Source: an uncultured bacterium (GTDB lineage: Bacteria; Lernaellota; Lernaellaia; Lernaellales; Lernaellaceae). From it: a stretch of DNA of 29,305 nucleotides. This document shows positions 2,381-11,421 of the stretch, in pieces. The DNA lies in contig CAZHPN010000052.1 in assembly GCA_964534375.1 (NCBI GenBank), forward strand, positions 4,246-33,550. Direction: 5' to 3'. Numbering within the stretch: position 1 is the stretch's first letter; each line of letters starts with the position of its first letter. The notes under the pieces are model-generated. The model saw only the letters and a list, made by a program, of their open reading frames with translations. It ran no database searches and was not told where the DNA came from. The position numbers were made by a program, and so were the translations under genes.

Positions 2381-2605
2381 CCGTGACCGGCAATTGCGCC
2401 GTCGCGTTCATGTTCGAGGTGGCGGCACGGACAAGGCGTGCTAACATAGGGTCGGCGTTCGGCAAGAAGCGCCGAAGGCGAAGAAACGGCAGGCGAGTGC
2501 TATCAAGTAATGCGTTGCCAGATTGTCCCATTGGCCAGAGCGGCTGAAAGTAAGTTGCATCTTCAACCTTCCGACCCAACGCGCAAAAAAAAACGCAAAC
2601 AGGCG

Positions 2606-2635
2606 TTGACACGGCCCCTTACTGGTGGTAAGAAT
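2606..2635 (+). promoter_or_regulatory. Putative sigma70 promoter of the island operon
   Basis: Perfect TTGACA at 2606-2611, TGGTAAGAAT 17-18 nt downstream, A-tract upstream, ~30 nt before the first ATG. Confidence 0.45.
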
Positions 2636-2665
2636 TTCTTACGGATCATCTTACGGGGGTTCGCA

Positions 2666-2938
2666 ATGGACAAGAAAGACATTCTGAAGGCGTTAATAGC
2701 CGCGATAGAAGCTGTTCAGGAGGAAAGCGGTGAAGAGCCTGTGGAAATAACTCTCGACACCATCCCGATGAGTGATCTGCCCGGATTTGAAAGCCTACGG
2801 TCATTCGAAGCCATTTCGGTTTTCGAGGAGAAACTAAATTTAGAACTCCCGGAGAATCCTTTTCTAGACGCTCACGGGTCCATGAGTATTCGCGAACTTG
2901 CCGAGGTCGTTTACACGCGGATCGATACAAGGAACTAA
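2666..2938 (+). CDS. Acyl-carrier-protein-like small acidic protein (90 aa)
   Basis: ATG at 2666. Very acidic. DLPGFESL resembles the LGxDSL phosphopantetheine site, followed by ..FEEKLNLELP..SIRELAEVV typical of ACP helices II and IV. Confidence 0.7.
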   Translation: MDKKDILKALIAAIEAVQEESGEEPVEITLDTIPMSDLPGFESLRSFEAISVFEEKLNLELPENPFLDAHGSMSIRELAEVVYTRIDTRN

Positions 2939-2940
2939 AA

Positions 2941-3303
2941 ATGAAAGATGCCCCTACGACCAAAAAATCCGAACTTGCCAGACGTCTTCGAATCGCGAGG
3001 GAATGGGCTGGTCTTTCGCAATCGCAGGTCGCATTGAAATTGCAGCTACATCGCCCTACGATCTCGGAGTTGGAAGCCGGCAGACGAAAAGTGTCGGCCG
3101 AGGAACTGTTGCACTTTTCTAAGTTGTACGGCGTAAGTCTGTCTTGGCTGTCCGGCGAAGAAGAATCGTCATCACATAGTAATGACGTTCAAGTTGCTGC
3201 CCGGGAGTTGAGCAAACTTAAAAGTGAAGACCTGAAACGGTTACTCGACTTGCTCGCCGCCGTAAAGGAGGCAGGGGGCGCAGTAGATGAATCAAAGACG
3301 TGA
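2941..3303 (+). CDS. XRE-family HTH transcriptional regulator
   Basis: LARRLRIAREWAGLSQSQVA..LHRPTISELEAGRRKVS..ELLHFSKLYGVSLSWL is a classic HTH_3 pattern, with a C-terminal helical tail. Confidence 0.92.
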   Translation: MKDAPTTKKSELARRLRIAREWAGLSQSQVALKLQLHRPTISELEAGRRKVSAEELLHFSKLYGVSLSWLSGEEESSSHSNDVQVAARELSKLKSEDLKRLLDLLAAVKEAGGAVDESKT

Positions 3304-4156
3304 TCTCGCCAGACGCGCCGTGAGCGAGGCGTTGAAGGTGCGCCGGCGTTTAAACATTCCGCCGTGGGCGCCTATTTGTGTCTTCGACGCCGCTGAGAAT
3401 TTGGGCTTAGAGGTGCGTTTTCAGGACATCCCGAGCCTCGAAGGTTTATACTACAAGAGTTCTGCGCCGATCGTTTTTGTCTCTTCTCTTCGGCCGCCCG
3501 GAAGGCAAGCATTCACTTGCGGCCACGAAATCGGGCATTACATCTTCGATCACGGTAATCGAATCGATCAAGGACTTTCGGGTTCTTTTGATTCGGGCTC
3601 CGAAAGCGATCATGATGAATTGCTGGCAGATATTTTTTCTGGGTTCCTGCTCATGCCGCTGGCCGCCGTGAAAAAAGCGTTTTTCGTTCGCGGAATGAAT
3701 ATTTATGCCCCCAACGAACTCGACGTTTACAAGATTGCGAATTTTCTCGGCGTCGGTTATGAAACGCTTGTCTCTCACATGTGCTATGGTCTCAATGTTC
3801 TTGATCAAGCCGTGGCCAAGGATCTTTTGCGTTTTTCGCCGCAAGAGATCCGAAGTAGGTTCCTTGCGGATTCTAATGTTTTCAATATGGTGTTCGTCGA
3901 CCAGCATTGGATCGGGCGCGCGATCGACGCGCAGGTAAACGACATAATTGTCCTCCCGAAGCACAGCCAATTCGAAGGAACGTGCGTCTCCTTCGTCAAT
4001 GAAAGAGAATTTGGAAGTGTTTTTCGTTGTACGAAGCCCGGTCGAGGAAGATTTTTAGCTCAAACACAGGACTGGTCTGCCTTTGTACGAATCTCGCGTA
4101 CAAACTATATTGGAAGGGCCCTGTTCAGGCACGACGAGGACTCCGACTATGTATGA
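3287..4156 (+). CDS. ImmA/IrrE-family zinc metallopeptidase
   Basis: RQAFTCGHEIGH (HExxH) plus ELLADIFSGFLLMP (E..A..F...LLMP). Overlaps the XRE gene by 17 nt. Confidence 0.92.
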   Translation: MNQRRDLARRAVSEALKVRRRLNIPPWAPICVFDAAENLGLEVRFQDIPSLEGLYYKSSAPIVFVSSLRPPGRQAFTCGHEIGHYIFDHGNRIDQGLSGSFDSGSESDHDELLADIFSGFLLMPLAAVKKAFFVRGMNIYAPNELDVYKIANFLGVGYETLVSHMCYGLNVLDQAVAKDLLRFSPQEIRSRFLADSNVFNMVFVDQHWIGRAIDAQVNDIIVLPKHSQFEGTCVSFVNEREFGSVFRCTKPGRGRFLAQTQDWSAFVRISRTNYIGRALFRHDEDSDYV

Positions 4157-4934
4157 TCCGCTCGTTGTCTGCGAGTCAAATATTTCTATTGCATGGGCTC
4201 GACTTTTTCTCGCCGTCATGACGCCCGGAATAGAAGAGGTCGGTCCCGTTCTCGTGTGTTTAACCGTTCCGGACAACGGTGACGTGCGCACGGACACCTC
4301 TATTAGAGCAATGGTGGATAATCTACTCCGCGAAACCGACAACCAGTCGATTGACACTGTGGCAGCCACCATTTTCCCGATTTCCCTCTGGAACCCCGCG
4401 CGAGAGCGCGCTCTTCTATACGAACGATACGCTCGTATTTTCCGGAAGATAAAAAAGTGCCGGCAAAATGTGCGAGGAACTTATTTTCAACGATTGACTT
4501 CGTTCTCGCCGAATTGGACTGCCAGTGATTTTGATCCCGTCACACCGACGAATCAAATCGAGAATATTATTACTTTCTATAAGAGTGGGAACCACCGACG
4601 AAGCGCTCTTCAAGCGACGATTTTCGACCCGACGCGGGATCAGAAAAATCAGCGACAGACCCCATTTCCTTGTTTGCAGCAGATCGCATTAGCGCCACTC
4701 GGTGAACGCGAGTTGAGTATGAACGCATTCTACGCGACACAATTTGTCGTTGAACGCGCCTACGGAAATTATCTTGGGCTCGTCAATCTCGGCCGGTTTT
4801 TTGCACATGAATTGGGGTTACAATTCCGACAACTTAACTGCTTCGTCGGCGTTGCCAAAAAGGGACGCATCAACAAGAGCGACCTGTTTTCCACCGAGAA
4901 ACACATTCGTACGTTGTTAGAAATGAAGGAGTAA
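4149..4934 (+). CDS. Divergent thymidylate-synthase-fold protein (261 aa)
   Basis: Start placed at ATG 4149, overlapping the upstream stop. NQIENII..RRSALQATIFDP..PFPCLQQI..AYGNYLGL..FFAHELGL follows the TS core with the catalytic PC. RSxD and HxY are absent. Confidence 0.7.
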   Translation: MYDPLVVCESNISIAWARLFLAVMTPGIEEVGPVLVCLTVPDNGDVRTDTSIRAMVDNLLRETDNQSIDTVAATIFPISLWNPARERALLYERYARIFRKIKKCRQNVRGTYFQRLTSFSPNWTASDFDPVTPTNQIENIITFYKSGNHRRSALQATIFDPTRDQKNQRQTPFPCLQQIALAPLGERELSMNAFYATQFVVERAYGNYLGLVNLGRFFAHELGLQFRQLNCFVGVAKKGRINKSDLFSTEKHIRTLLEMKE

Positions 4935-4940
4935 CCTAAA

Positions 4941-5861
4941 ATGTCTTTTTTAGGTACTGAAACCCTGCAATTAGTGCTTCCCGGTCTCGTGCGTCCGTTC
5001 GCTCCCGAGAGGATCGAATGCGGAGCATACGAATTGGGCCTTGGTTGCGAATATTTTATCACCACCGATGAGTGCAAAAAGACCCTAGCGGTAGGCGCGC
5101 AATTAGTAATTCCGCCAGGCCAATTAGCGTTGTTGATCTCTGCGGAGTCGGTTAGCGTGCCCTGCAATATGATGGCCTTCATTTCGATCAAGTCAACAAT
5201 GAAGCTCGGCGGGCTAATAAGCGTTTCTGGTTTTCATGTTGACCCCGGTTTTGTCGGCCACCTTAAATTCACGGTTTACAACGCCGGCAGTCAGCCTACT
5301 ATTCTCGATGTTGGGCAGCCGCTTTTTCTAATTTGGTATGCGATGCTTGATGCACCGACACTTTATACATATAAGGGAAAGAGCCAAAATCAGAACGAGA
5401 TCACTGCGGAGGACGTGAAGCGGTTGCGCGGGGCCGTCCTGTCTCCTCCGGAGCTAAACAAAAAGATCGAAACGACACAACGCGAGGTCGAACATCTCAA
5501 ATGGCGCTTCAATACCGTTGTTCGCGTTTTCGAAGCCTTATTCGTCTTATTCCTCGGTGCCGCCGTGATCGGTCTTGCGAGTCATTTTCTCCTCCAGTGG
5601 CTCGAACCAAACCATGCGCACTCACTCGGCAATCCAGTTCCCGCCAGCGCCGGTTTAGCAAACTACGCAGCCGGAAAGTCAAGTCCGCTGCCGCCGCCTA
5701 TAACGCCTCCGGAGGCAGGGCCTCCTAAAGATATGAACGCCTCGCCGCGCGGAGGCGACCAGTCCCCTGAACAGACGTTGTACAAGGCGTCCGGTGATCC
5801 GGACCGATCCGGCGGGAATCCACGATCTTCCTCCGCCAAAGGAACACAAACAAAAAAATGA
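4941..5861 (+). CDS. dCTP deaminase/dUTPase-fold protein with C-terminal TM helix and Pro-rich tail
   Basis: YELGLG..IPPGQLALLISAESVSVP..KST..GFHVDPGFVGHLKFTVYN..Y.YKGK is the trimeric Dcd/Dut pattern. Hydrophobic VFEALFVLFLGAAVIGLASHFLLQWL follows. AGGAG RBS. Confidence 0.8.
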   Translation: MSFLGTETLQLVLPGLVRPFAPERIECGAYELGLGCEYFITTDECKKTLAVGAQLVIPPGQLALLISAESVSVPCNMMAFISIKSTMKLGGLISVSGFHVDPGFVGHLKFTVYNAGSQPTILDVGQPLFLIWYAMLDAPTLYTYKGKSQNQNEITAEDVKRLRGAVLSPPELNKKIETTQREVEHLKWRFNTVVRVFEALFVLFLGAAVIGLASHFLLQWLEPNHAHSLGNPVPASAGLANYAAGKSSPLPPPITPPEAGPPKDMNASPRGGDQSPEQTLYKASGDPDRSGGNPRSSSAKGTQTKK

Positions 5862-7615
5862 AGAAGCGCGCGACCCGTAAGAATTCTCTTTTGATTGTGT
5901 TTGAGGGGCCGGACGGCGTAGGAAAGACGACGCTGGCCCGAGGTCTTTTGCGTTTGTTGGCGGCCGCGGGAACATCATGCAATTATTTTTCTTTCCCAGG
6001 CAAGGAACCGGGATCGCTTGGCAATCTTGTTTACAACGTTCACCATGATCCCACCTCCTATGGGCTATCCTCATTAACCGCCGCGGCTCTACAAGCGCTT
6101 CATGTGGCGGCGCACCTTGAGGCCATCGAAACCAAGATTGTTCCCGCTCTCCGTAGTGGAAATGTTGTTGTTTTGGACAGATTTTGGTGGTCAACGGTCG
6201 TCTATGGCTCAGGCAATGGGGCCTCGATTGACTTCCTTTCAGACCTTGTGATGGCAGAAAAGCGTTTTTGGCAAAATATTCGGCCGGATATTGTTTTTTT
6301 GATTCGCCGCGACGACCAAGTCGCACTAACCGACGATGTTTACTCGCAATTGGAAAAAAGCTACCTCGCATTGATGAAGGAAGAGAGCAAATATTACCCT
6401 ACGTCTGTAATCGACAACGATCACGACATCGATTGCACGTTGCGAAAAATCGGTTCAGTAATCGACAATTTATTTTCTTCCGAGGTCGCCACGAGGTCTG
6501 CGTTGGCGAAGACTTGTCATGTTGACGCGCCGGACAATCACAAAGGTGACCGGGCTCAAATGGCTCTCGGCATTTTATCGAGCGGGACGCCTGGGCGGCA
6601 AACTCACCCGTCGCGGACAGCCCCCGTGATCAGGAGCCTTCCGCCGGCAGTACCGTCCGTTGTTTACGACACTTATTGGACTTTTGCGGCGAAGCGACAG
6701 GACATATTTTTCAATCGATATAATGGGACAACAACGCCGTGGACTGACGATCCAATATTGGCGCGACATAAATTCACGAACGCATACAGAGCCTCTGATC
6801 GCGTCAGCCAGTACCTTATTAGAAACGTCATTTATAAAAACGGTCATTCACCCGAAGATACGTTTTTTAGGATTCTCTTATTTAAGCTGTTTAACCGGAT
6901 CGAAACCTGGGAAACCTTGGAAGATACCGTAGGGGAGATAACGTATTCAGACTTTTCGCTTTCGCGGTATGACAGAATATTAAAAGCGCTCATGGACGAT
7001 GGAAAGCGGATTTATTCCGCCGCTTATATTATGCCCTCCTCCACACGGTTTGGACTTGAGAAGAAGCACCAGAATCATTTGAGAATTCTTGAATTGATGA
7101 TGAAGAGCTCCGCGCCTTCGAGGGTCATGGAATCGAGATCAATGCGCGATGTGTTTGAAATCATGAAATCGTACCCTATGATCGGTGATTTTTTGGCATA
7201 CCAATATTCCATAGACATCAACTATAGCGAGCTTACCGATTTTTCTGAGAACGACTTTGTCGTCCCTGGTCCGGGAGCAAGAAACGGTATTCGCAAGTGT
7301 TTTTCGGATTGCGGCGGTCTTAACGAAATCGATCTGATTCGACTTGTTACGGACCGGCAGGAATTAGAATTTCATCGGCTGGGGCTTTCTTTTCAATCGC
7401 TTTGGGGACGCTGTTTGCATTTGATCGACTGTCAGAACCTGTTTTGCGAGGTCGATAAATACTCCCGCGTCGCGCACCCCGAAATAAAAGGCATTAACGA
7501 CCGGACAAGGATCAAGCAGAAGTTCGTTCCGAAGACCGACGCAATTCGTTTCTGGTTTCCTCCGAAGTGGGGAATCAACGGGAACATAGAGGCGGCGCAG
7601 CCGAAAAAAGAATGA
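5858..7615 (+). CDS. Fusion: thymidylate-kinase-like P-loop domain + 5-hmdU DNA kinase helical (aGPT-Pplase1-type) domain
   Basis: N-terminal IVFEGPDGVGKTT..VVVLDRF..PDIVFL (Tmk-like). C-terminal PWTDDPIL..KFTNAYR..DRVSQ, LLFKLFN, FLAYQ..D, GPGARNG, QN.FCEVDKY.R match the phage thymidine-hypermodification kinase family as recalled. Confidence 0.8.
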   Translation: MKKRATRKNSLLIVFEGPDGVGKTTLARGLLRLLAAAGTSCNYFSFPGKEPGSLGNLVYNVHHDPTSYGLSSLTAAALQALHVAAHLEAIETKIVPALRSGNVVVLDRFWWSTVVYGSGNGASIDFLSDLVMAEKRFWQNIRPDIVFLIRRDDQVALTDDVYSQLEKSYLALMKEESKYYPTSVIDNDHDIDCTLRKIGSVIDNLFSSEVATRSALAKTCHVDAPDNHKGDRAQMALGILSSGTPGRQTHPSRTAPVIRSLPPAVPSVVYDTYWTFAAKRQDIFFNRYNGTTTPWTDDPILARHKFTNAYRASDRVSQYLIRNVIYKNGHSPEDTFFRILLFKLFNRIETWETLEDTVGEITYSDFSLSRYDRILKALMDDGKRIYSAAYIMPSSTRFGLEKKHQNHLRILELMMKSSAPSRVMESRSMRDVFEIMKSYPMIGDFLAYQYSIDINYSELTDFSENDFVVPGPGARNGIRKCFSDCGGLNEIDLIRLVTDRQELEFHRLGLSFQSLWGRCLHLIDCQNLFCEVDKYSRVAHPEIKGINDRTRIKQKFVPKTDAIRFWFPPKWGINGNIEAAQPKKE

Positions 7616-8625
7616 AAAACTTCGTGGCAGAAAATGCTAATGATCTGTGGATTCAGGCGTTTGATGCGCTCCGCGACGATGTAAGTGCGGACGAGCAGCC
7701 TAGCCGGGCCGGCCTCACGCGTGAACTACTACATGTAACATTTACGTTGAAGAATCCGCGGGAGAGATGGATTGTGGCGAGGGAGCCCGCGCTAAATCCA
7801 GCCTTTGCCGTAGCAGAATTAGTGTGGATAATCAACGGAAGAAATCAATCCGCGATTTTAAATTATTTCAACAAAAAGTTGCCACGCTTTGCCGGTGACG
7901 GCGAGACCTATCACGGCGCGTATGGGTTCCGAATTATAAACCACTTCAAGATCGACCAGCTTACAAGAGTATATGAGACGTTAAAAAACAATCCGGATAG
8001 CAGACAAGCTGTTCTGCAGATTTGGGATCCGATGGAGGATTTGCCAGATTCGAAAGGCCAACCGCGAGATATGGACATTCCGTGCAATATTAGTTCGATA
8101 ATAAAGATTCGGAGAAATCGGCTGGAGTGGTTCCAGATCATGAGAAGCAACGACCTGTTTCTTGGCACGCCTTATAATTTTGTTCAATGGACGAGCGTTC
8201 AGGAAATCATGGCGGGGTGGCTCGGGGTTGGGCTGGGAGAATACAATCAGCTGAGTGATAGTCTTCATGTTTATAAACGCGATCTTGGTAAAATATGCGT
8301 CGATGACCTCGCGGGAAACATTCGAAATGCGGATTCGTTAGATTACCCCAAGGAAGTGTCGGACAGGGCGTTTAAAGAGCTATACGAGAAGATTGACCGC
8401 ATGACGAAGGTAATAATAAACGAAAAGGATTTGGAAGAGATTTGTGAAAAGCGCGACGCCGTTCAGAGCTATCAAAACATGTTGCTCGTTGTCGGAGCCG
8501 AATGCGCAAGACGTAGGGGATGGAAGGCGTTGCAAGAAAGGCTGATCGGAGATTGCACGAATCCATTGTACAGTCTGCTATCGGAACGGTGGGTAAGTCG
8601 CGTAACAAGCAAGATGGCGCAGTAG
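7612..8625 (+). CDS. Thymidylate synthase family, probable dUMP hydroxymethylase type (337 aa)
   Basis: ATGA overlap at 7612. NPAFAVAELVW, GAYGFR, PDSRQAVLQIWDP, DIPCN, MRSNDLFLG.PYN, SLHVY are all present. Asn at the base-discriminator position implies dUMP. Confidence 0.82.
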   Translation: MKNFVAENANDLWIQAFDALRDDVSADEQPSRAGLTRELLHVTFTLKNPRERWIVAREPALNPAFAVAELVWIINGRNQSAILNYFNKKLPRFAGDGETYHGAYGFRIINHFKIDQLTRVYETLKNNPDSRQAVLQIWDPMEDLPDSKGQPRDMDIPCNISSIIKIRRNRLEWFQIMRSNDLFLGTPYNFVQWTSVQEIMAGWLGVGLGEYNQLSDSLHVYKRDLGKICVDDLAGNIRNADSLDYPKEVSDRAFKELYEKIDRMTKVIINEKDLEEICEKRDAVQSYQNMLLVVGAECARRRGWKALQERLIGDCTNPLYSLLSERWVSRVTSKMAQ

Positions 8626-8682
8626 CGACGGCGCTGCGATTGAGGGCGAACGCAAGGCTCGGCCCGACGGGCTTCTAATTGC

Positions 8683-8725
8683 GGTCGCGGTAGGGGCCTC
8701 GCTTCCAGTGGCCCCTACCGCGACC
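8683..8725. terminator. Perfect 16-bp hairpin with GTAG-type REP core between convergent genes
   Basis: GGTCGCGGTAGGGGCC - 11 nt loop - GGCCCCTACCGCGACC. Confidence 0.65.
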
Positions 8726-8746
8726 TGAATTCTGTCATGTGGCTCG

Positions 8747-9856
8747 TCAATATGCGACGCGTGCCGCCGGTGCGTCGGCGGTAGCGGCGGGGAGGATCGC
8801 CGCCCCAATGTCAAGCACTCGTTTATATCTAAGCGCCACGGACGTGAGCCTCGACGGGTGGCCCTTACCAGGACCGCGAGGGTGTCTCGCAAGAATATCA
8901 TCAACCCGCGTGCGGAGAAGATGCATCAGGAGAACGTCAGACGTGGACGCGTCGAGATCCCAATCCCCGTCACGAGTGTCCGCCAACCATTTCGAGAAAG
9001 TCGCTAACTCTGTTTTGGCGCTGTCTACGTCGCGCGGTGTTTTAAAATACTGTTTCAGAGCGGCAGGAGTGTCATAACCAAAAGCGACAAGCTCGTCCAA
9101 CACCTGGTTTGCATGGCTCCCTAAGTCCGGTAATTCAGGCAGATAGTTGCGCATTCGAGCGACGAAATCGAAAACGTCCGCAAATGGGTCCGTATCTTCG
9201 TGATGTCGTTTCTCGGCTTCTTCGAGAAGGTGCATGATGATCCCGTCGCCGGCGGTCAAGAGGTGCCCTAATTGATCTAGGTACTCATTCTCCCGGCGTG
9301 AAGGAAGCCCCATCTGCGGTTTATAGCGCAGGTCATGTTCGATTTCGTTCCACACGTGGGCTAGCATGCTGCTGACCTGAATTTCGCAGCCCAATCCCTT
9401 CAGATTGTCATACGTGCCGACGAGTTCAGATTCTGGTAAATATACCTGGCAATGGGTCGCACGATAGAATCCACGTTCCGCGTCTTTTATGTCGATGTCG
9501 ATTGGCGCTTCGTCCTTGCCGACGAAGGCCTTCGTAATTGCTGTTACAACTTTCGCACGGTCTCGCTCTTCGTATGTGGCAACCCGCACGCCGGCTAGGT
9601 CACTGACGCGATCGAACACATCGTCGACGCTATTCAACGCGTTCGCCTCTTCCGCGTCCGACAAATATTTCTTTAGTTTGCCTTCGAAACGCTTGGGATC
9701 TTTGGCCCGGAACGTTACTTGGCCGCGAATAGTATTGCCTTCCACAACGTCGTCGCGGCAGATTTCCTCGACGCGCTTCGCCAACTTCAAGTAGCGGTCG
9801 TACTCCCGCCAATACCGATCAACGGCTTCCACGATAATTGTTTCGTTCAGAGGCAT
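8747..9856 (-). CDS. RelA/SpoT (alarmone synthetase-like nucleotidyltransferase) domain protein with C-terminal extension
   Basis: RAKD..F..K, DLAGVRV, FYRATH, CEIQV, HVWNEIEHDLRYK motifs. ATG 9856 follows AAAAGGA; an alternative GTG start is at 9880. Confidence 0.85.
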   Translation of the reverse strand: MPLNETIIVEAVDRYWREYDRYLKLAKRVEEICRDDVVEGNTIRGQVTFRAKDPKRFEGKLKKYLSDAEEANALNSVDDVFDRVSDLAGVRVATYEERDRAKVVTAITKAFVGKDEAPIDIDIKDAERGFYRATHCQVYLPESELVGTYDNLKGLGCEIQVSSMLAHVWNEIEHDLRYKPQMGLPSRRENEYLDQLGHLLTAGDGIIMHLLEEAEKRHHEDTDPFADVFDFVARMRNYLPELPDLGSHANQVLDELVAFGYDTPAALKQYFKTPRDVDSAKTELATFSKWLADTRDGDWDLDASTSDVLLMHLLRTRVDDILARHPRGPGKGHPSRLTSVALRYKRVLDIGAAILPAATADAPAARVAY

Positions 9857-10129
9857 CGATCTTATCCTTTTCGCGTCCACCGATTGCGATCCAGCACCGT
9901 GCCGCTGTGCGAGTTCAGTTTGGGATGAACTGAAGCCATGCTTGGCAAGTGCCGAGACACACTCGTCGGCGCCGGCATTGTTCGTTTTTCGAGCATGACC
10001 CCGTCAGTGCCCGCCGCCGTTTCGCCGGGCAATCGGGAGCACACCACAATTGGAACGGAAGCGTCAAGACCGTGGCGCGTCAACGACGAACCTCCCGCGC
10101 CGTGAAGATTTCCCGGTCGTGGTTGCGCA

Positions 10130-10189: not shown

Positions 10190-10343
10190 TCGTTCTCGTC
10201 GAGGTTTCGGATCGCGGGATAATTAACGATGTATTCGCGTACGCGGTTGAGGCCATCAGCGTCGCGAACCATATGCTCATAGGGGACCATGCCCCGCCGT
10301 TGTTTTTCGTGAAGATGGCGACACCCCCGACAATCGGACGCAA
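10190..10343 (-). pseudogene. C-terminal remnant of a REP-associated / IS200-like tyrosine transposase (RAYT)
   Basis: YEHMVRDADGLNRVREYIVNYP resembles the RAYT C-terminal YEHIIR...IREYI.NNP motif. LRPIVGG..W lies upstream in another frame (frameshift). No HUH N-terminus is seen. Confidence 0.65.
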
Positions 10344-10437
10344 AAGGGCGCCACGTACCGTTTCTGGCAGTCAGGCTCTTCATTGGCGTACTATGTTTGC
10401 GCCGGACCGCAACCGCCGGGGGCCGAAAGGCCCTTCG

Positions 10438-10719
10438 ATGCCTCACAAACAAAAAGTGCTCTCCTACACCGCCGGCTTTGAGCCGTTAGAAAACGGCGGT
10501 TACCTGGTCACCGTGCCGGCTTTGCCAGGGCTCGTGACCGATGGCGTGGACTTCGACGACGCCGTGGCGATGGCGAAGGACGCGATGGCAGGTCATTTGG
10601 CGGCGTTGGCGGCGTTGGGCGAGCCGATTCCGGCGGAGGCGCAGGCCATTCAGGGCGCCGAAGGGAGTGCCCGACAGCGATTTCTTTCCCTGCCCGAAGA
10701 CCAAGTGCGAATTTCATGA
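10438..10719 (+). CDS. hicB: HicB-family antitoxin, copy 1 (aberrant C-terminus)
   Basis: FEPLENGGYLVTVPALPGLVTDG...AVAMAKDA...GEPIP. GAAAGG upstream of ATG 10438. Confidence 0.8.
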   Translation: MPHKQKVLSYTAGFEPLENGGYLVTVPALPGLVTDGVDFDDAVAMAKDAMAGHLAALAALGEPIPAEAQAIQGAEGSARQRFLSLPEDQVRIS

Positions 10720-10809
10720 CGACGGCCGGACGTGGGTCGCCAAGCATGCCCGAAAAGGGCAGGCGCCGAGGTGCGAACGGTAGGGGCGGAGCCCGCCGCT
10801 GCCGACCGA
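10688..10809 (+). repeat. 122-bp direct repeat, right copy
   Basis: Matches 2155-2276. Encodes the degenerate PCPKTKCEFHDDGRTWVAKHARKGQAPRCER, out of frame with hicB copy 1. Confidence 0.85.
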
Positions 10810-10921
10810 ATGATGAAGCAGGGGGGCAGGACAAGTTGGCCGACAAGCCCGCTTTGCTGGGATGTGGGTCGCGTGTTATGTTTGTTATTGGCAGCGGGCA
10901 ACGAAACGGAAAGGGTGTTTG

Positions 10922-11194
10922 ATGCCGCGAAAAGAAAAAGTGCTTTCGTATACGGCTGTCTTCGAGCCCCTGGAAAACGGCGGCTACATGGTCACTGTGC
11001 CGGCGCTCCCGGGGCTTGTTACCGATGGCGTTGACTTCGAAGACGCCTTGGAAATGGCAAAGGACGCGATTCAAGGTCATATTGAAGCGTTGGCGGCATT
11101 GGGCGAGCCAATTCCTCGGGCCGACAACGACAAGCCAAAACGCGTCGCCGTGCGAGTCAATTTGAAAAAACCCTTAAAAGCAAAAGCGGTATGA
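10922..11194 (+). CDS. hicB: HicB-family antitoxin, copy 2
   Basis: YTAVFEPLENGGYMVTVPALPGLVTDG..EDALEMAKDAI..GEPIP. ATGA overlap with hicA. Confidence 0.9.
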   Translation: MPRKEKVLSYTAVFEPLENGGYMVTVPALPGLVTDGVDFEDALEMAKDAIQGHIEALAALGEPIPRADNDKPKRVAVRVNLKKPLKAKAV

Positions 11195-11421
11195 CGCGAC
11201 TGCCAGTAATGAGGCCGCGAGAGGTTATCAAAGCCCTCAAAGGGGCCGGCTTCATCATCGTTCGCCAGAAGGGCAGCCACATTCAATTTCACCACCCGTC
11301 GCGACCGGGCGTCGTCACGGTCCCGAACTATCACCGCGAGATTCCGCCGAAGGTCTTGAAGAGCATCGCCGCACAAGCCGGGTTTACGATAGCTGAATTC
11401 CTGGAATTGTTGGCGAGGTGA
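11191..11421 (+). CDS. hicA: HicA-family mRNA interferase toxin
   Basis: REVIKALKGAGF..VRQKGSHIQFHHP..VTVP.....I....LKSI..QAG. Confidence 0.92.
   Translation: MTRLPVMRPREVIKALKGAGFIIVRQKGSHIQFHHPSRPGVVTVPNYHREIPPKVLKSIAAQAGFTIAEFLELLAR

Follow-up and report, generated by a model that had tools for sequence, protein, structure and literature searches.

Cassettes that combine thymidylate synthase- (TS-) like proteins with 5-hydroxymethyldeoxyuridine (5-hmdU) DNA kinases were formerly known only from thymidine-hypermodifying phages, and one bacterial cassette has now been shown to defend Escherichia coli against phages (PMC13092281). A cassette of this type is found in a stretch of 29,305 nucleotides from an uncultured bacterium of the Lernaellota (assembly GCA_964534375.1, contig CAZHPN010000052.1, positions 4,246 to 33,550 of the forward strand), referred to here as the window. 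The gene of interest is located at 4941-5861 on the + strand of the window. Its product is a membrane-tethered protein of the Dcd/dUTPase superfamily which lacks the deaminase residues and belongs to a large uncharacterized family, here called Dcd-TM. An earlier reading of the letters alone, the original prediction, had regarded it as a possible nucleotide-sensing membrane effector and had named a membrane-anchored dUTPase as the alternative. The reading to which most weight is now given, at somewhat short of an even chance, is that the protein would be a membrane-anchored pyrophosphatase of deoxyuridine triphosphate (dUTP) and deoxythymidine triphosphate (dTTP) that feeds a 5-hydroxymethyluracil (hmU) pathway.

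The definition of the 5-hmdU DNA kinases comes from phages that hypermodify thymidine. The upstream pathway of the hmU phages uses a TS-like deoxyuridine monophosphate (dUMP) hydroxymethylase, a dTTPase and a dTMPase, a dCMP deaminase, and a deoxynucleoside monophosphate (dNMP) kinase (PMC8989533). In bacteria, the E. coli phage defence DS-4 (working identifier NTTI) was validated by DefensePredictor. Its genes encode a TS-like protein, a dNMP kinase named “adenylate kinase”, HMUDK_hel and TIR proteins, and an Nmad2 protein, and the 5-hmU kinase and TS were counted as domains newly validated in defence (PMC13092281). The papers on CapH and CapP, in their available parts, describe how CapP activated by single-stranded DNA cleaves CapH, so that immune operons are derepressed; the cassette considered here is unmentioned in those parts.

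As regards the enzymes to which Dcd-TM is related by fold, it has been reported that the trimers of Dcd and of Dcd-dUTPase switch all three sites in concert on binding of dTTP and that, in Dcd enzymes, the inactive state of the loop is the only one with room for the 5-methyl group of dTTP. The Asp of motif III is the catalytic residue of dUTPases; its replacement by Asn abolishes catalysis and leaves binding unaffected (PMC4827122, from the accessible sections).

Fold and Domain Architecture

The open reading frame (ORF) starts with ATG and encodes 306 residues, and its N-terminus, MSFLGTETL, fits the family consensus MxFWSSEtL. The Dcd/dUTPase fold assigned in the original prediction is borne out by a match to Pfam DCD (PF22769) on residues 17-132 (E 8.5e-13, 49 bits, cut-off 27) and by Foldseek. 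NCBIfam dCTP_deam scores 61.7 bits, which is under its equivalog cut-off of 92.8. The best sequence matches in the PDB are 9ln0, named thermostable enzyme dUTPase P45, and 8y1w, the Thermococcus pacificus dUTPase complexed with dUMP (phmmer E 7e-16 and 1e-13). The same two structures are found by Foldseek at E 4e-14 (4.3e-14 before rounding) and 7e-13, with target template modelling scores of 0.87-0.88 (0.87 for 9ln0).

The AlphaFold2 model, built with 44 relatives, has a mean predicted local distance difference test score (pLDDT) of 82.4. The head is a beta-rich core of residues 1-150 (4941..5390), mostly above 90. A Dcd-type lid (Y144-x-G-x4-Q151) follows and runs into a family-specific elbow, I-T-x-x-D-V-x-x-L-x-G-x-V-A-S-P, the two together occupying residues 144-168 (5370..5444). 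After the core, the model contains a helix at 156-165 and then a single long helix at 169-221. The first part of the long helix is a stalk (residues 169-198, 5445..5534) in which L172, I176, T179, V183, L186, F190, and V193 form a 4-3 hydrophobic repeat resembling that of coiled coils. Its last part is the single transmembrane helix (residues 199-221, 5535..5603), whose core A199-L221 comprises 23 hydrophobic residues and in which the 19-residue Kyte-Doolittle window from residue 200 reaches 2.35. Residues 222-306, which with the stop codon occupy 5604..5861, form a disordered tail (pLDDT about 50) that is predicted to be extracytoplasmic; its 85 residues include 15 Pro, and Pro, Ser, Gly, and Ala together make up 54%. 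The coiled-coil stalk, the one membrane helix, and the disordered Pro-rich tail that had been read from the letters are all present in the model, the hydropathy profile, and the composition. The same architecture recurs across a large family and therefore is not due to chance.

Deaminase Residues and the Nucleotide Site

E. coli dcd and SIRV1 dUTPase, taken from annotated records, were aligned by MAFFT with family members. The aligned set contains 194 unique relatives, which are 120 listed of 202 search matches plus 75 ORFs from related loci, deduplicated, and the residue counts given here refer to this set. The segment R110-S111-S112-L-A-R115 of E. coli Dcd corresponds to K84-S85-T86-M87-K88-L89 of the window protein, and L-E138-F-Y-N to F-T111-V-Y-N, which places T111 at the site of E138; H121 and D128 correspond to S94 and D101. 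The KSTMKL and KFTVYN segments had thus been placed correctly, and the deaminase residues are lost. Across the relatives, the Glu138 position is occupied by Ser in 133, Ala in 51, Thr in 8, and Gly in 2, and by Glu in none. The Arg115 position (L89 in the window protein) is Phe in 99, Leu in 37, Arg in 12, and another residue in the rest, and the Ser111 position (S85) is Ala in 119, Phe in 38, Ser in 31, and otherwise variable. Since the Glu138 position is never Glu and the other two are mostly replaced, the family as a whole, to judge from these sequences, cannot be a dCTP deaminase.

Public databases call the family “dCTP deaminase”, and the ESM Atlas yielded only “dCTP deaminase family” clusters. 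This name is the point in favour of regarding the protein as an ordinary housekeeping dCTP deaminase or dUTPase mispredicted as membrane-bound, which is nevertheless extremely improbable. The absence of Glu138 from all 194 sequences rules out a housekeeping deaminase, and the NCBIfam score below the equivalog cut-off and the hydrophobic segment present in nearly all relatives (see below) point the same way. In addition, a normal soluble Dut is encoded elsewhere in the genome of the window (PF00692, E 4.4e-33), in agreement with the earlier view that this protein differs from the soluble housekeeping enzymes. HMUDK_hel, the 5-hmdU kinase domain encoded next to the gene, occurs in one of 17 genomes of the phylum, namely the window's own, and the GC content of the cassette is 0.50 against 0.64-0.66 in its flanks. 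Given the low GC content and this restricted occurrence, the cassette is an acquired island, and given the soluble Dut of the genome, the Dcd-TM gene is an accessory paralogue. A housekeeping Dcd or Dut is thus excluded for practical purposes, and a widespread annotation is corrected, as none of the 194 examined members can be a dCTP deaminase.

The original prediction went one step further and passed from lost deaminase residues to a receptor. This step does not follow from the sequence. 9ln0 and 8y1w are working dUTPases of the same fold and have no Glu either, with L-T-L-M-L-Y-N standing at the Glu138 site in the alignment. Loss of Glu does not imply a receptor. SIRV1 dUTPase keeps Glu at this site.

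The nucleotide-binding motif, by comparison, is retained as had been noted, and so is the Dcd-type lid. The window protein keeps G-F-H-V-D101-P-G-F, and both the motif III Asp (D101) and an aromatic residue after D-P-G (F/Y/W104) are present in 194 of 194 relatives. The basic residue of motif II, K/R84, is found in 193 (the window protein has K84-S85), and the lid residues Y144 and Q151 in 181 and 143. Further residues are invariant or nearly so and specific to the family: Q61, S82, K88, N94, S96, G97, H99, F129, and W132. Position 94, which aligns with His121 of E. coli Dcd, is Asn in 193 of the relatives, and the sole exception is the window protein itself with Ser, a change that could alter or weaken the function of this copy. 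The elbow is new to the family and reads I154-T-x-x-D158-V-x-x-L-x-G164-x-V-A-S168-P169-x-x-L172, with I154 conserved in 169, D158 in 157, G164 in 190, S168 in 177, P169 in 185, and L172 in 183 sequences. An equivalence between its G-A-V-x-S (residues 164-168) and the G-A-V-A-S near the C-terminus of E. coli Dcd was considered and dropped, as MAFFT did not align them. Taken at the level of the alignment, the nucleotide site of the family is retained and its central loop is remodelled, which would be compatible with a catalytic as well as with a non-catalytic protein.

Membrane Anchor and Family Distribution

The membrane helix is borne out as a family trait. A 19-residue Kyte-Doolittle window after the core reaches at least 1.6 in 170 of the 194 relatives and 1.0-1.6 in 15, and nine failed. 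Three of these nine missed the motif anchor only, the hydrophobic segment being present in separate scoring. The segment is accordingly found in at least 185 of the relatives, and only five have two. Lys plus Arg average 2.49 per 12 residues before the helix and 1.23 after it across the family. As basic residues favour the N-terminal flank, the head is predicted to face the cytoplasm.

The sequence of the membrane helix and the tail are not conserved. The tail ranges from 0 to 111 residues with a median of 37, and only one of 16 long members has a Pfam domain in it (DUF4440). In 128 of 169 proteins, no more than 100 residues separate H-V-D-P-G from the membrane helix; the distance is 101-120 in 28 and more than 120 in 13, and values up to 166 are due to repeats inserted into the stalk. 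A search for short relatives without the helix gave six matches only, of which some come from contigs about 1 kb long, and a search for longer, fused forms gave none, which is weak evidence.

A word-indexed search for relatives returned 202 proteins, and a profile search of 1.84 billion representatives gave 805 matches at E<=1e-30, that is, about 805 clusters at 50% identity; the best 150 of these 805 matches are all 200-372 residues long. A relative is encoded by 479 of the scanned species genomes, across many bacterial phyla, and the distribution is sporadic and island-like. Plasmid-borne members are also found. On plasmid NZ_CP133481.1 (5167-10843), a variant cassette has the order Dcd-TM, small ORF, helix-turn-helix (HTH) gene, ImmA/IrrE peptidase, C1 peptidase, and hypothetical gene, and the opposite strand encodes a uracil-DNA glycosylase and a MazG protein; HMUDK is absent from the 12 kb covered. 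Among 50,697 phage records no close homologue was found, the best matches being archaeal-virus dUTPases at 30% identity. PADLOC has no model that matches Dcd-TM or either TS-like protein of the cassette. No membrane-anchored Dcd-like protein is described in the full-text literature searched, and earlier neighbourhood surveys may already cover such genes.

Operon and Genomic Surroundings

The operon is headed by an HTH and M78 peptidase pair of the CapH/CapP type. The CapH-like HTH repressor lies at 2941..3303 on the + strand, as do all genes of the operon (PADLOC capH E 6.7e-12; Pfam HTH_3 E 1.1e-13), and the CapP-like M78 (ImmA/IrrE) metallopeptidase at 3287..4156 (PADLOC capP E 5.2e-18; Pfam Peptidase_M78 E 4.8e-13). 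The next gene, at 4083..4934, encodes a divergent TS-like protein, TSL1, which matches NCBIfam TIGR03283 at E 7.1e-10, far below its cut-off, and has an F-P-C motif. TSL1 keeps the P-C motif, lacks the phosphate-binding motif R-S-x-D, and co-travels with CapH/CapP in related loci. Its true start is probably the ATG near 4149, as homologues align from about residue 17-26. After the Dcd-TM gene comes a Tmk-fused 5-hmdU DNA kinase (5858..7615; HMUDK_hel, PF18723, E 2.1e-113; Thymidylate_kin, PF02223, E 9.5e-18). The last gene is TSL2 (7567..8625; Thymidylat_synt, PF00303, E 1.4e-21), a TS-like candidate dUMP hydroxymethylase with P-C and R-S-x-D...P-Y-N motifs and a probable start at the ATG near 7612. 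The Asn form of its P-Y-N motif is a mark of uracil-type TS enzymes.

Genes in this part of the operon are tightly packed. The gap from TSL1 to the Dcd-TM gene is 6 nt, and the start of the kinase gene overlaps the stop codon of the Dcd-TM gene (ATGA), an arrangement that suggests coupled translation. It would suit a non-catalytic anchoring or regulatory subunit, whose head binds a nucleotide or a partner and which keeps the TS-like enzymes and the kinase at the inner membrane, or tunes their activity, with no hydrolysis and no membrane damage. The invariant residues outside the classical catalytic set, the variable length of the stalk, and the dispensable tail agree with such a role. However, gene order relative to the partners is not fixed in the related loci, and the strict conservation of D101 and of the lid points to a working nucleotide site. 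An anchoring subunit is on balance unlikely.

Directly upstream of capH, an ORF of 90 residues at 2666..2938 on the + strand resembles a carrier protein and is tentatively part of the cassette. Its match to PF00550 (PP-binding; E 0.015) is below the cut-off and spans profile positions 5-64 of 67. The ORF has a G-F-E-S-L serine motif, and according to tblastn, 11 of the 80 related loci have it upstream of capH. Genes for ACPS, a phosphopantetheinyl transferase, occur in 25 of the 80 related cassettes.

No inverted repeat that could serve as a CapH operator was found at 2450-3000. A scan of 2400-9000 for promoters and terminators was uninformative, with nine promoter-like sites (5.3 expected) and seven terminator-like sites (9.2 expected). 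Convergent with the operon, at 8747-9880 on the - strand, is a RelA/SpoT-like nucleotidyltransferase gene (PF04607, E 2e-10; weak PADLOC PDC-S33 match). As none of the 80 related loci has one, it is probably a separate gene of the island. Next to the cassette, at 10273-11421 (+), a HicB-like ORF (10273-10719) precedes a toxin-antitoxin pair of HicB/HicA type (10862-11194 and 11191-11421). A 94-bp tandem repeat of 2.1 copies with 97% identity lies at the window edge, at positions 1-201.

Related Cassettes and Accessory Genes

The 80 related loci (L001-L080) were seeded on Dcd-TM, and cassette genes were counted in them by tblastn, with several misses at contig ends. HMUDK is found in 72, capH in 51, capP in 49, TSL1 in 55, and TSL2 in 40. 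The commonest layout, which is that of the window, is capHP-TSL1-DcdTM-kinase/HMUDK-TSL2 (19 loci), and a second one, capHP-TSL1-HMUDK-MazG_C-ACPS-DcdTM, is found in 17. Accessory genes were identified by Pfam on cluster representatives and counted in the same way. MazG or MazG_C is present in 34 loci, ACPS in 25, a ThsB-like TIR in 23, and Nmad2 in 22, followed by a papain-like peptidase in 10, SLOG in 8, TIR_2 in 7, and radical SAM in 4. In L019, L037, L057, L064, L077, and others, a papain-family (C1) peptidase and a chagasin-type (I42) inhibitor domain lie beside the CapP-like peptidase or are fused with it. The module of TSL2 and Tmk-like kinase and that of MazG_C and ACPS are nearly mutually exclusive, co-occurring in one of the 80 loci, which suggests two alternative builds of the same cassette.

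In order to view the cassettes independently of Dcd-TM, HMUDK_hel was sampled in 401 genomes from each of three phyla, of which 5, 5, and 9 had matches. Removal of the three seed genomes and of four weak matches (E 1e-13 to 1e-22) left 12 loci, each considered together with its surroundings, about 17 kb in all. Dcd-TM is present in four of these loci, TIR with Nmad2 in five, neither in three, and both in none, so the Dcd-TM gene is missing from 8 of the 12. One locus has the layout of the window minus Dcd-TM plus TIR and Nmad2 (L116), and another has capHP-TSL1-HMUDK-MazG-MazG_C followed by a ribonucleotide reductase, with neither Dcd-TM nor TIR and Nmad2 (L110). The window operon itself contains no TIR and no Nmad2 gene according to Pfam, and the window as a whole is without a TIR gene according to PADLOC and Pfam.

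A swap of Dcd-TM for other effector domains in homologous operons had been named as a check on the effector idea, and it is partly seen. DS-4 and 5 of the 12 unbiased cassettes carry TIR and Nmad2 and no Dcd-TM; on the other hand, 23 of the 80 Dcd-TM-seeded loci also carry TIR and/or Nmad2, and 3 of the 12 have neither. The complementarity is not significant (Fisher p 0.08 in the unbiased sample and 0.05 with the seeded loci, kinship uncorrected). As the alternation is not significant and is broken by loci with both and with neither, Dcd-TM is an optional module and there is no fixed effector slot.

These counts bear directly on the idea of a nucleotide-gated membrane effector. In such a protein, a non-catalytic trimeric head would bind a 5-substituted dUTP, for example 5-hmdUTP made by the cassette or a phosphorylated derivative, or dTTP; a switch of loop and lid would then cause the three membrane helices to perturb the membrane and abort infection. 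A single membrane helix on an oligomeric ligand-binding head is the architecture of membrane effectors of signalling immunity such as Cam1 and Cap15, which Dcd-TM may resemble. The lid runs directly into the conserved elbow and the stalk helix, and the hydrolytic motifs II (its Ser) and IV are eroded. Dcd trimers switch in concert on dTTP (PMC4827122), and the switching loop is the very segment that is remodelled in the family, where K88, N94, S96, and G97 are invariant. The operon stands under CapH/CapP, like toxic abortive-infection operons, and the Dcd-TM gene is transcribed divergently from the cassette in at least five loci (L005, L007, L024, L030, and L038). TIR with Nmad2 is found in DS-4 and in five of the eight unbiased loci without Dcd-TM, as compared with none of the four with it.

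Against an effector, this last pattern falls short of significance and is broken by the loci with both and with neither, as described above. A passive tether would agree with the variable length of the stalk and with the unconserved membrane helix and tail. According to Pfam, the operon encodes neither a cyclase nor a CD-NTase nor another signal synthase of a known kind, and PADLOC is without a model for the protein. The effector is therefore regarded as rather unlikely, and the membrane-anchored dUTPase-type enzyme, which the original prediction had given as its alternative, is at least as likely. If the effector were true, it would found a class of its own among effectors and put the dUTPase fold to a new use, and it would imply deoxynucleotide-based second-messenger signalling built from DNA-hypermodification enzymes.

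Proposed Function

According to the favoured reading, that of a membrane-anchored dUTP/dTTP pyrophosphatase, the head would be cytoplasmic and probably trimeric, standing on a short helical stalk with one membrane helix per subunit. It would bind a pyrimidine deoxynucleoside triphosphate (dNTP) with Mg and hydrolyse it to the dNMP and pyrophosphate, the substrate being dUTP and/or dTTP. This would be the same task as that of the phage dTTPase/dUTPase in the pre-replicative pathway of the hmU phages. The product dUMP would pass to the TS-like hydroxymethylase or hydroxymethylases, and competing dTTP would be lowered. The resulting 5-hmdU would enter replicating DNA, and the Tmk-fused 5-hmdU DNA kinase would then phosphorylate it. 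Cleavage of CapH by CapP after DNA damage or phage infection would switch on the whole operon. The defensive role of this cassette is a putative one.

Several observations support an enzyme. The nearest relatives in sequence and structure are dUTPases, and conservation is complete at the catalytic Asp and high in the lid. The partners of the cassette are those of a 5-hmdU pathway (HMUDK_hel and the two TS-like genes, at the frequencies given above), and the logic of the hmU-phage pathway calls for such an enzyme. Furthermore, the NTP-pyrophosphatase domains of MazG recur in the sister cassettes (34 of 80), which makes dNTP hydrolysis a usual component. As to the substrate, the former deaminase positions are now small or hydrophobic (A/F/S, F/L, and S/A/T), and the pocket may thus accommodate a 5-substituted uracil. 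This room for a 5-substituent, together with the presence of the host Dut, would favour dTTP, or dUTP and dTTP, over dUTP alone.

Other observations weigh against an enzyme. The motif II Ser is present in only 31 of the 194 relatives, though the window protein has S85. No conserved Arg or Gln is found at motif IV, where the E-R-F-V-Q of P45 is replaced by the invariant F129 and W132, and the motif I Asp is Glu in 172 and non-acidic in 22. The family has invariant residues of its own (Q61, S82, K88, N94, S96, and H99), and the window protein has Ser at the near-invariant position 94. No membrane-anchored enzyme is known from the Dcd/dUTPase superfamily, and none came up in the literature searched. 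The enzyme model accounts neither for a membrane anchor nor for the erosion of motifs II and IV. With the host Dut already present, a plain dUTPase would be redundant. Finally, the gene is not essential to the pathway, given the 8 of 12 unbiased HMUDK cassettes without it. If the tethered dTTP/dUTP pyrophosphatase is confirmed, it would speak for a strategy in which bacteria use the hmU chemistry of phages as a weapon against replicating DNA.

Comparison with Known Systems

The closest known proteins are the archaeal Dcd-like monofunctional dUTPases, P45 (9ln0/9ln3) and that of T. pacificus (8y1w). They have the same fold, the D-P-G-aromatic motif III, and a lid that reads Y-x-G-x-Y-Q, and they are also without Glu at the deaminase position. 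However, they are soluble, of about 155 residues, and keep R-S-S-L-A-R and E-R-F-x-Q, whereas the Dcd-TM family has K/R-A-G-x-K and F...W instead and adds the elbow, stalk, membrane helix, and tail.

E. coli Dcd and the Mycobacterium tuberculosis Dcd-dUTPase (1xs1, 2qxx, 4a6a) share the fold (Foldseek E about 1e-12), and in the joint alignment with the family there is no variation at G38, E95, G117, L118, D128, and G130 (E. coli numbering). These enzymes are trimeric, allosteric, and dTTP-binding. The family differs from Dcd in the loss of the Ser111/Arg115/Glu138 triad, in the replacement of His121 by Asn (Ser in the window copy), and in its membrane anchor.

The Cam1, Cap15, and Pycsar transmembrane effectors of nucleotide-signalling immunity, which have one or a few membrane helices, are encoded in defence operons and combine an oligomeric ligand-binding domain with a membrane helix. 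The operons of effectors of this type encode a dedicated signal synthase, and the transmembrane helix of Cam1 is N-terminal. Dcd-TM has no homology to these effectors, its membrane helix is C-terminal, and its operon contains no recognizable synthase.

With the phage dTTPase/dUTPase of the 5-hydroxymethyluracil phages, which depletes dTTP and supplies dUMP beside a hydroxymethylase and a dNMP kinase, the likeness of the proposed role is one of function only. None of these phage enzymes is known as a membrane protein.

At the level of the whole cassette, DS-4 is alike in the TS-like gene, the P-loop kinase, and HMUDK_hel (adjacent genes in the window). The HMUDK_hel proteins of two cassettes of DS-4 architecture (L095 and L115) are 46-53% identical to that of the window. 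DS-4 differs in having TIR and Nmad2 and in being without a Dcd-like gene, CapH/CapP, and a second TS-like gene. In comparison with such systems, the family adds to the TS/HMUDK cassettes a conserved component that is Dcd/dUTPase-like, membrane-anchored, and non-deaminating.

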